A program made the translations under genes and the position numbers. The notes under the pieces were generated by a model that saw only the letters and a program-made list of their open reading frames with translations, searched no databases and was not told the origin of the DNA. Source: Mobula hypostoma (lineage: Eukaryota). Taken from it: a DNA stretch of 64,000 nucleotides. Position 1 is the first letter of the stretch, and each line of letters opens with the position of its first letter. Below are positions 12,239 through 13,841 of this stretch, one piece after another. The stretch spans positions 40,488,001 through 40,552,000 of the forward strand of contig NC_086097.1 in the NCBI RefSeq assembly GCF_963921235.1, written 5' to 3'.

Positions 12239-12900
12239 ATACCTCTTCCTATAGATGCTTCCTGGCCTGCTGCATTCACCAGCAATTTTTATGTGTGTTG
12301 CTTGAAATTACAGCATCTGCAGATTTCCTCATGTAGACACCTCCTTCGTCCTGGAATGAAAAGCCTCATCCTGAGAGCAGATGCGGTGGAGACGGAGAAA
12401 TTGCAAAACTGTGGTTTTCAAAAATCAACTCATGACAGTCAAGCAGCTCAGACTTGGAAAGTAATCCGAAGTTTTCTGAGTATGTGATGAGCCTCAGTGT
12501 GATATTAAAGGTAAAGAGCTGATATTGTAAATAGGTTGGATGGAGTTCAAGAACACATTGGCAATCAGAATAGGATTATCACTATCCAAGTGGGTGCCGG
12601 AGCCTCAGGGTTCACCCCACCAGGTCCAGGAACAGTTATTACTACTCCACTATCAGGCCCTTGAACCAAAGAGGATAACTTCACTTGCCCCTTCACTAAA
12701 ATGTTCCCACAATCAATAGACTCACTTCGAAGACTCTTCATTTCATGTTCTCAATATTTGTTGCTTATTTATTTATTTATTATTATTATTATTATTTCTT
12801 TCTTTTCATAATCATATAGTTTGTTGTCTTTTGCACACTGGTTGAACACCAAATTCTTTCATTGATTCTGTTATGGTTATTATTCTATTATGGAATTATT

Positions 12901-13072
12901 GGTTCCTTAGGCTGTCATAGCCAGGGGTGGTAGTGGGGATAAGCTCCCGGTACATATAAAGTGCTCCAAATAGCGTGTGTCTCTAACAGCCTCTGAGAAC
13001 CGAGTCCAACTCTTGGCCTTCACACTATGGCTTAATTACTAGGCCTGACTGAACTGTTTCTACTAACGAGAG
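12901..13072 (+). ncRNA. Candidate HDV-like ribozyme (partly decayed)
   Basis: P1 GGTTC(12901)/GAACT(13051); P2 CTCTTG(13010)/CGAGAG(13067); P3 GCC(13016)/GAC(13047); J4/2 CTAA(13063). Confidence 0.45.
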
Positions 13073-13488
13073 AAGGGCAAAGGTGGACCACTGGCACCTC
13101 AAAACCAGTTGTTTTGGGCAGATGGGGTCCATCGGCCTTAGACGGCATCCCGTCTAGGAGAAGGAGAACTATGATTTTAAACTTTAGCTTCCTTGCAGCC
13201 ATACCCACCCATGAGAAAGGCTTCAGGAGAAAACCCTGAGGAAGAAATCTGGAGCCAGGGACTCTATGCTGTTTACTGTTTGATATTGTTTACAACTTCA
13301 ATCTGGCAACCTCTGCGACGAACCTGCTTGCCCTTCCCTTGGACTACCTCAGCGACGTGGAGAGGGGGATCCCGCTGCACGGGCAACAGCCGGTTCTTCA
13401 AATCTTCCCGCACAAGCTTTCACCCGGGAGAGGGCACAGTCCACCAGAGGCGCAACCCCATGATCCCCTGGCATCGACGGCTGCCTAC
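12901..13488 (+). mobile_element. RTE-derived non-autonomous element (SINE-like) with long TSD
   Basis: Flanks CTATTATGGAATTATT (12885-12900) / CTACTATGGATTTATT (13485-13500); internal GTCTAGGAGAAGGAGAACT resembles RTE 5'UTR motif. Confidence 0.7.
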
Positions 13489-13841
13489 TATGGATTTATT
13501 GAGCGTGCCCGCAGGAAAATGAATCTCAGGGTTGTATATGGTGACATACATGTACTTTGATAATACATTTACTTGAAACTTCGAACTTCAAATTTCTATT
13601 TGGCTTTCTCAATATAAAATAGATGCAATCACTACTTGGAATGAGGAAGTTTCAGGTAGCGACAATGTAAATGTTCTGGAAAGGAATGTCAATGTTGGCA
13701 TGAGAAGCTCAGTTGTAAGCAGGGGAATACAAGAGTGGTTCAGTTTTGTGCAATGCCTAGAATGGCATTTACATAGATTTTGAAATATCTGTGAAAAGCA
13801 CCTACTGTCATTTATTATAATATGAGAATATTAACAATCTA

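Follow-up and report, generated by a model that had tools for sequence, protein, structure and literature searches.

Ribozymes that define the 5' ends of retrotransposons are known mainly from insects, trypanosomes and elements specific to ribosomal DNA (rDNA). In the silkmoth R2 element, ribozymes resembling that of hepatitis delta virus (HDV) carry a J1/2 region of 216-498 nucleotides (nt) and no P4, cleave in vitro, and lose cleavage through a C-to-U change (Eickbush, Burke and Eickbush 2013, PMC3774820). RTE and Baggins are presented in a review as promoter-less elements without long terminal repeats (non-LTR elements) that a 5' HDV-like ribozyme frees from read-through transcripts (PMC6765202), and the non-autonomous NARTc, SIDER (L1TcRz/Pr77) and R2 SIDEs are reported to keep the HDV-like ribozyme of their parent (PMC3383444, PMC3414825, PMC4035085). 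Here we describe a short dispersed family found in a 64,000-nt stretch of Mobula hypostoma DNA (contig NC_086097.1, positions 40,488,001 to 40,552,000 of the forward strand; hereafter the window), where positions 12901-13490 (+) are occupied by one old copy of a non-autonomous non-LTR retrotransposon, ~603 nt long and ending in a (CTA)n-type tail.

An earlier note, made from the letters of the window, had proposed an HDV-like ribozyme at the first base of this insertion, rightly stating that such ribozymes are already known at retrotransposon 5' ends, including those of R2 and RTE (PMC6765202, PMC3774820). Judged from its sequence, the head of the family (its first 171 bases) probably is, or was, a self-cleaving HDV-like ribozyme.

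A double-pseudoknot fold at the first base of the family

With 12901-13500 as query, a search of the window's own 3.48-Gb assembly gave 6049 first-look candidates, and all 40 that were scored align from query base 1-25 to ~590. In 30 loci aligned with their flanks, the upstream DNA is unrelated between copies, the tail is of the (CTA)n type and the target-site duplications (TSDs) are copy-specific. Among 60 distinct full-length heads, 44 start exactly with GGTTCC and a 45th does likewise, shifted by one column; the remaining heads differ within the first 1-4 bases, as retrocopy 5' junctions often do. The copies therefore begin at the G of GGTTCC, as had been predicted. A core pattern of the head, CTCYTGGCCTTCA...GACARGAG, has 2262 matches in the genome, against none for its control. 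The family has the features of a non-autonomous non-LTR retrotransposon, broadly akin to a short interspersed element (SINE): its copies are dispersed and flanked by TSDs, their 3' tails are simple repeats, some copies are truncated at the 5' end, and coding capacity is lacking. A coding element was considered and is not supported, since stops interrupt each of the six frames of the consensus and inspection by eye, without a protein-family search, showed no long ATG-initiated open frame; the longest open stretch (~90 codons, frame +2 from base 2) has no ATG. The host genome is vertebrate-like and CpG-depleted, with an observed/expected CpG ratio of 0.26 in the window.

A consensus built from 29 copies, in which position 1 corresponds to 12901 of the window, folds from its very first base. 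In order, it reads P1 GGTTCC (1-6), J1/2 (7-109), P2 CTCTTG (110-115), P3 GCC (116-118), the first part of L3 TTCACGTGT (119-127), a 17-nt hairpin of 7 base pairs (bp), GGCTTAG-CTA-CTAGGCC (128-144), C145, P3' GGC (146-148), P1' GGAACT (149-154, with G1 opposite T154), G155, TTTCTA (156-161), CTGA (162-165) and P2' CAAGAG (166-171). This is the HDV double-pseudoknot order P1-J1/2-P2-P3-L3-P3'-P1'-(P1.1)-P4-J4/2-P2', with P4 replaced by 6 nt. All helices and core letters (U119...G124 and C121 of L3, G155, and C162-T-G-A) are restored, P1 returning to 6 bp and P3 to GCC/GGC as the earlier note had expected; the peculiarities it had listed, namely a J1/2 of ~100 nt (103 nt in the consensus) and an extra hairpin in L3, are likewise both present, and there is no real P4. 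CTGA is retained in 50 of the 60 heads, G155 in 57 and TTCACG in 36, and most of the departures from TTCACG are decayed CpGs. Left unconstrained, consensus 1-175 takes a minimum-energy fold (RNAfold) that contains P1 (1-6/149-154) and the L3 hairpin, with J1/2 folded on itself, and that of a natural copy, L026, likewise holds P1 and the L3 hairpin.

The fold was also expressed as a relaxed descriptor, which was written after the match had been seen and is hence fitted to the family. It specifies a P1 of 6 bp starting with G.U, a P3 of 3 bp abutting P2 and P1', a P2 of at least 5 bp, an L3 of 7-40 nt starting with T-Y-C, a J1/2 of up to 150 nt, a P4 of 0-100 nt, a G after P1' and C-N-R-A before P2'. 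On the 606-nt family consensus it gives exactly one match, at base 1. It gives none on the two strands of the window (128 kb). Two random 1-Mb sequences, one composed like the window and one like the element, contain 3 and 1 start sites.

The copy in the window carries the following features, and all the strings that the earlier note had named are found exactly where it had placed them.

12890-12900 (+): left TSD, ATGGAATTATT, recurring with one mismatch at 13490-13500
12901-12906 (+): 5' strand of P1, GGTTCC, with predicted cleavage immediately 5' of G12901
12907-13009 (+): J1/2 domain of 103 nt, predicted from the consensus (RNAfold) to be a self-folding long stem-loop
13010-13015 (+): 5' strand of P2, CTCTTG; across the subfamilies it occurs as CTCTTG, CTCCTG and, rarely, CTCTCG
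13016-13018 (+): 5' strand of P3, GCC
13019-13028 (+): 5' part of L3, TTCACACTAT in place of the consensus TTCACGTGT, with the conserved G changed to A and one base inserted
13029-13045 (+): hairpin inserted in L3, GGCTTAA TTA CTAGGCC (consensus GGCTTAG CTA CTAGGCC)
13047-13049 (+): 3' strand of P3, GAC (consensus GGC), with the middle pair broken
13050-13055 (+): 3' strand of P1, TGAACT (consensus GGAACT, G1 opposite the final T), forming 5 of 6 pairs
13056 (+): G after P1, predicted to form P1.1 with C13021 of L3
13057-13062 (+): six-base linker TTTCTA replacing P4; TTTCAA stands at the equivalent place in family B (below)
13063-13066 (+): J4/2, CTAA (consensus CTGA), with the predicted catalytic C at 13063
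13067-13072 (+): 3' strand of P2, CGAGAG (consensus CAAGAG), with a G.U pair to T13014
13112-13116 (+): site corresponding to consensus 213-215 (TTCGGG), where the family has its second discrete 5' end
13175-13178 (+): internal TTTT run, conserved in the family, ~275 nt into the element
13313-13490 (+): 3' tail module, 75-83% identical over ~140 nt to a young SINE with a tRNA-like head
13490-13500 (+): right TSD, ATGGATTTATT, preceded by ...GGCTGCCTACTA; the initial A is possibly part of the CTA tail instead

The insertion thus begins with GGTTCC directly after its TSD, as had been claimed, and the remark that this copy is partly decayed also holds. The copy is ~84% identical to the sampled subfamily consensus, whereas sampled copies are ~91% identical to their own consensus. 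Its lesions are a C-A middle pair in P3, a C-T top pair in P1, the change of the L3 G to A (13024) and an A-C mismatch in the hairpin; it keeps P2 (with one G.U), five of the six P1 pairs, G13056 and C13063, and it fails the relaxed descriptor. By these letters, the window copy reads as an inactive fossil and not as an active ribozyme.

Substitutions between subfamilies and compact relatives

Three subfamilies were sorted by hand from 100 listed rows among the 2262 core-pattern matches. Subfamily 1 (10 rows) has P2 CTCTTG/CAAGAG and a hairpin ending ...TTAG CTA CTAGGCC; subfamily 2 (81 rows) has P2 CTCCTG/CAGGAG and the hairpin 3' strand CTAAGCC; and subfamily 3 (9 rows) shares the P2 of subfamily 2, with the hairpin GGCATAG TTC TTATGCC, P1' GGAGCT and the linker TTCTCA. 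The 5' ends of subfamilies 2 and 3 are as sharp as those of subfamily 1, and those of subfamily 3 are preceded by unrelated DNA. The pair of G1 differs among them: TG stands at 154/155 in 55 of 60 subfamily-1 copies and in all nine subfamily-3 rows, and C154 is found in many subfamily-2 copies.

Structure-preserving substitutions distinguish these subfamilies in P2, P1 and the L3 hairpin. In P2, positions 113/168 are C/G in 84 of the listed rows, T/A in 10, T/G in 4 and C/A in 2 (hand tally); the association (Fisher p = 3.5e-9) reflects subfamily descent and thus counts as one event. C113/G168 is also the majority by depth in contigs of four public runs, each labelled as a different organism, which were placed on L026 at 80% likeness and cover the element and not its flanks; in run X1, for instance, C113 makes up 3406 of a depth of 3930 and G168 3306 of 3744. 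These contigs also carry A141, turning the T131.G141 wobble into T-A; they show no site at which many molecules start or stop, although contigs cannot reveal RNA ends. In P1, pair 3/152 is T3-A152 in subfamilies 1 and 2 and C3-G152 in subfamily 3, where G152 is found in 8 of the 9 listed rows and the 5' end is GGCTCC in 58 of 76 listed copies and of the GGTTCC type in the other 18, whose T3 would pair with G152 as a wobble. In the L3 hairpin, the T.G that subfamily 1 has at 131/141 corresponds to T-A in subfamily 2 and to A-T in subfamily 3, where pair 134/138 also passes from G-C to G.U. This covariation assigns GGC 128-130 to the hairpin and therefore leaves 146-148 as P3', so that the hairpin lies truly inside L3.

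A third, rare P2 state, CTCTCG/CGAGAG, which differs at pair 114/167, occurs in 8 of 41 copies with CTCTCG, and the CGAGAG of the window copy suggests that it stands near this lineage. Copies of the lineage lie at G000:C96:2920136-4539966 and on C99 and C103, and they include a cluster on C96. The hairpin of the C96 cluster reads GGCTCAG...CTAGGCC, and one copy restores the 132/140 pair (CTGGGCC).

Relatives that Rfam does recognise were found in the same genome. The Rfam model of the CPEB3 ribozyme (RF00622) gives 43 matches at E <= 10 among 59 scored candidates, of which 10 exceed the gathering score of 35 bits. Seven aligned loci, which pass that score (up to 43.8 bits), represent a compact family, here called family B; in each, the ribozyme sequence forms the start of a small repeat preceded by unrelated DNA:

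L091-L093: G000:C2:160885319-160885442; C21:96164679-96164812; C21:101702921-101703053
L094-L097: C52:56317397-56317530; C45:78776373-78776505; C18:142344690-142344822; C5:75356553-75356686

Nine exact matches to the family B pattern are likewise at the first base of the repeat, and a DNA search (53 first-look candidates, 40 scored) gave alignments starting at query base 1-5 in 36 of the 40. The family B sequence, GGGGCC AA GGTAGAA GCG TTCACGT CGC GGCCCT G TTTCAA CCAA TTCTACC, is by its letters a canonical compact HDV-like ribozyme without P4, placed at the first base of ~50 retrocopies. Their 3' extents vary from ~71 to 106 nt, with one copy continuing into another repeat, and look like those of tailless retrocopies of a self-cleaved RNA. 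Family B has in common with the family studied here the L3 string TTCACGT, the G-TTTC after P1', a C-N-R-A J4/2 and the absence of P4, whereas P1, P2 and P3 all differ in a complementary way. Around P3-L3-P1' it agrees with the Rfam CPEB3 consensus in ~24 of 26 letters (own count).

A single-copy CPEB3-like sequence at G000:C22:47905467-47905561 has a P4 stem, P2 GGAAGGA/TCCTTCC and a score of 34.5 bits, just below gathering; it carries T at the catalytic-C position, a decayed L3 (TTTACAT) and no CEBP_ZZ exon nearby. Orthology of a CPEB3-like match to the CPEB3 intron ribozyme was rejected, the CEBP_ZZ exons lying at five other places. A repeat with three copies (C9:14960507-14960580, C12:128015001-128015073 and C64:23807774-23807848) shares TTCACGTACCTTAYGTG...TGTTTCTGCCAAGCAA and has its TTCACGT in a palindromic hairpin, not in an HDV-type L3. 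A search for intermediate L3-to-P1 spacings gave 64 matches against 18 for the control, almost all of them internally deleted copies of the family studied here, and no new family.

Taken together, the covariation, the fold at base 1 and the Rfam-positive relatives make a head of the kind known from R2, RTE-type and L1Tc elements the best supported reading.

Proposed mechanism and its alternatives

Mechanistically, the element would be copied into RNA within longer host transcripts, which is probable because it has no recognisable promoter of its own. The head would then fold as a nested double pseudoknot (P1 1-6/149-154, P2 110-115/166-171, P3 116-118/146-148 and P1.1 C121-G155) with a six-base linker in place of P4 and the J4/2 cytosine C162 as general acid, and this fold would accommodate two additions, the self-folding 103-nt J1/2 and the 7-bp hairpin near the 3' end of L3. 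The RNA would cut itself immediately 5' of G1, leaving a defined 5'-OH end. At the other end, the reverse transcriptase of a partner long interspersed element (LINE) would recognise the 3' tail module and (CTA)n and copy the RNA to its last base.

The last ~200 nt of the element are common to the 3' half of an otherwise separate SINE (locus L077:333-640), with 75-83% identity over ~140 nt, and a 3' end shared in this way marks it as a LINE-type tail module, presumably the part recognised by the partner reverse transcriptase. This young SINE is ~305 nt long, with copies ~95-96% alike and 3563 first-look candidates; its head looks tRNA-like by eye, and ARAGORN calls no tRNA in it. The partner itself did not appear in several searches: 30 loci anchored at the 3' end gave only full-length, short-form or truncated copies, 30 anchored at the 5' end gave only the same 603-nt element, and low-stringency BLAST with the tail across the collected loci matched only the tRNA-like SINE. 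In a search with Pfam RVT_1, the best 150 matches all belong to one unrelated LINE family that is very young and highly abundant. That family accounts for C1:229470347-229471108 and 149 further places in G000, among 332,532 first-look RVT_1 candidates, and has open frames of which many are 1264 and the longest 1317 amino acids.

Several observations weigh against a self-cleaving head. Cleavage is a prediction from sequence and structure. Rfam returns no match to the element, for the window copy and ten good copies, even at E <= 10; the miss is expected because of the two insertions, J1/2 and the L3 hairpin, and agrees with the earlier suggestion that this topology could escape standard descriptors, and it follows that membership in the HDV class is assigned through a descriptor fitted after the fact. 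The whole descriptor is passed by one of 30 individual copies (L026), which is roughly the rate expected because 9% neutral decay acts over ~35 constrained positions. The fold of L026 has a z-score of only -1.87, and in a 320-nt context P1 is absent from the minimum-energy fold. The predicted closing stem of J1/2 (10-17/94-101) is not backed by covariation and is only a thermodynamic guess: a T.G appears in it in subfamily 2 and an A-A mismatch forms in subfamily 3, its 3' strand never changing across the subfamilies.

The covariation also has its limits. Within 60 copies of one subfamily it does not exceed that of shuffles (0.068 vs 0.067, with 121 of 500 shuffles as high), and 90.9% of cells hold a pair, compared with 34-50% when the partners are slid; such a null is expected for dead copies decaying neutrally and is uninformative either way. 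All of the covariation lies between subfamilies and amounts to a few events only. As for the covariation check that the earlier note had put forward, P1, P2 and the L3 hairpin answered it with compensatory changes between subfamilies, and P3 did not, being invariant within the family and differing in a complementary way only with respect to family B.

Subfamily 2 poses a problem at the cleavage site. Its positions 154/155 read CA in 39 rows, TG in 21, CG in 12, TA in 4 and other letters in 5 (81 rows, hand tally), whereas a control, the L3 CpG, decays symmetrically (CG 38, TG 22, CA 24, TA 5, other 11; 100 rows, hand tally). At least one subfamily-2 master thus probably had C154, with G1-C instead of G.U, and one may have had A155 in place of the P1.1 G. 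Non-Watson-Crick P1.1 pairs are described as tolerated in fast cellular HDV ribozymes (PMC13635239).

Finally, the family has a second discrete 5' end at ~214, which shows that another process also sets ends in it. The 30 loci anchored at the 3' end comprise 11 full-length copies, 11 that start at 213-215, two that start at ~19-27 and at 107, and six with starts scattered further in. The short forms (~390 nt, starting with TTCGGG at consensus 213-215; L032, L033, L035-L037, L039, L046, L049, L055, L057 and L060) have their own TSDs and unrelated upstream DNA. No ribozyme or promoter model was found that accounts for this start; a second ribozyme at ~214 was considered and rejected, as it matched only at a very loose descriptor setting among many spurious matches.

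Three other explanations of the head can be weighed against these data. The one that survives best, and which we nonetheless regard as unlikely, is a structured RNA with another job, such as a protein handle, a translation or stability element or a template end for second-strand priming, HDV-like in form and non-cleaving now or ever. An IRES-like role (that of an internal ribosome entry site) has been proposed for retrotransposon HDV-like ribozymes in the review cited above (PMC6765202). Covariation shows that pairing matters, not that cleavage does, and in the commonest subfamily G1-C154 and A155 may stand in place of the canonical wobble at the cleavage site and of the P1.1 G. However, the letters needed for catalysis only (the J4/2 C in C-N-R-A, and the U...G and C of L3) are kept across the subfamilies and in the Rfam-positive relatives, and the fold begins exactly at base 1 of the element, which a mere protein handle need not do.

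Less probable still is an internal promoter for RNA polymerase II or III (Pol II, Pol III) at G1 that would set the sharp 5' end, the HDV-like match being incidental. A sharp end alone cannot tell initiation from cleavage, and the second end at ~214 fits no ribozyme model. On the other hand, ARAGORN found no tRNA genes in 10 loci, and neither ARAGORN nor Rfam (E <= 10) found a tRNA, 5S, 7SL or other small-RNA head. The conserved TTTT run ~275 nt into the element would stop Pol III; together with the missing head, it fits the earlier proposal that the 5' end is not set by this polymerase. A descriptor with ~1-3 chance matches per Mb would also have to fall on base 1 by accident, and a promoter would need no compensatory changes in three helices.

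Chance resemblance is hardly credible and close to refuted: the motif is loose and post hoc, allowing a J1/2 of 150 nt, an L3 of 40 nt and a P4 of 0-100 nt, but it is absent from 128 kb of real sequence and occurs 4 times in 2 Mb of random sequence, the substitutions between subfamilies preserve structure, and Rfam-positive ribozymes carry the very same unpaired core strings.

Comparison with known ribozyme-bearing elements

As a kind, the self-cleaving head proposed here is known, for HDV-like ribozymes have been described at retrotransposon 5' ends, non-autonomous derivatives included. Three things are new. The architecture joins a helix within L3, backed by covariation, to a 103-nt J1/2 and lacks P4, which conceals it from Rfam; the copies, in their thousands, are dispersed through a large vertebrate-like genome; and compact CPEB3-like ribozymes stand alongside at retrocopy 5' ends. 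We found no description of such a family, and its strings matched no paper (primary lists of RTE ribozymes were not covered); searches of the literature for HDV-like ribozymes in SINEs or vertebrates gave general reviews only, and no precedent for the L3 hairpin was found in the literature examined.

With no more than a few fixed letters, HDV-like ribozymes are difficult to detect, and the one proposed here is missed by standard descriptors and Rfam models even though it heads thousands of elements. If the head cleaves, then L3, a core loop by the active site, can carry a helix, which widens the space to be searched, and ribozymes that define 5' ends would also occur in a dispersed family of very high copy number, in a large vertebrate-like genome. 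The three subfamilies provide natural covariation mutants. Together with the compact CPEB3-like copies, a cleaving head would also give a testable lead on the origin of the mammalian CPEB3 ribozyme.

The closest parallels differ in what they share. With RTE the likeness noted here is confined to the 5' end; no RTE-type coding sequence or tail linked to the family was found, and the 'RTE-derived' of the earlier note gained no support. NARTc, SIDER and the R2 SIDEs are, like the family studied here, short and non-coding, with a ribozyme at base 1 and a tail used by the reverse transcriptase of a partner, but as described (PMC3383444, PMC3414825, PMC4035085) they have an autonomous parent with the same head, and none was found here. 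Pr77 of the trypanosomatid L1TcRz is in addition reported to be a promoter, and the host of the present family, with a 3.5-Gb CpG-depleted vertebrate-like genome, is unlike the trypanosomatid systems.

The R2 ribozymes, those of the silkmoth in particular, come nearest in architecture. Their nested double pseudoknot heads a non-LTR element and releases it from a co-transcript, and they have a P1 of 6-7 bp, a P2 of at least 5 bp, a very long J1/2, no P4, a catalytic C in J4/2 and a conserved L3 G-U (PMC3774820). R2, however, is autonomous and specific to 28S rDNA, and many of its ribozymes cut upstream in the rRNA; the present family is non-coding and dispersed in thousands of copies, its cut is predicted at its own first base, and it has a hairpin inside L3 of a sort that does not figure in the account of R2 drawn on here (PMC3774820).

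At the level of letters, the mammalian CPEB3 ribozyme (RF00622) is nearest. The element itself has no RF00622 match, and no match in the genome lies near any CPEB gene. The CPEB3 ribozyme occurs as one intronic copy and has a P4 stem and a short J1/2, whereas the present family has no P4, a 103-nt J1/2 and the L3 hairpin; the two nevertheless have an identical L3 UUCACGU, a G after P1, a C-N-R-A J4/2 and, as far as subfamilies 1 and 3 are concerned, a G1-U pair. It is tempting, if rather speculative, to see in this likeness a CPEB3-type ribozyme lineage carried on retroelements, in compact forms without P4 and, as a much enlarged derivative, in the present family, whose catalytic core would tolerate a helix in L3 along with the 103-nt J1/2. 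Should the likeness be one of descent, the CPEB3 ribozyme would be a domesticated retrotransposon head, and the compact forms and the family described here its surviving relatives.

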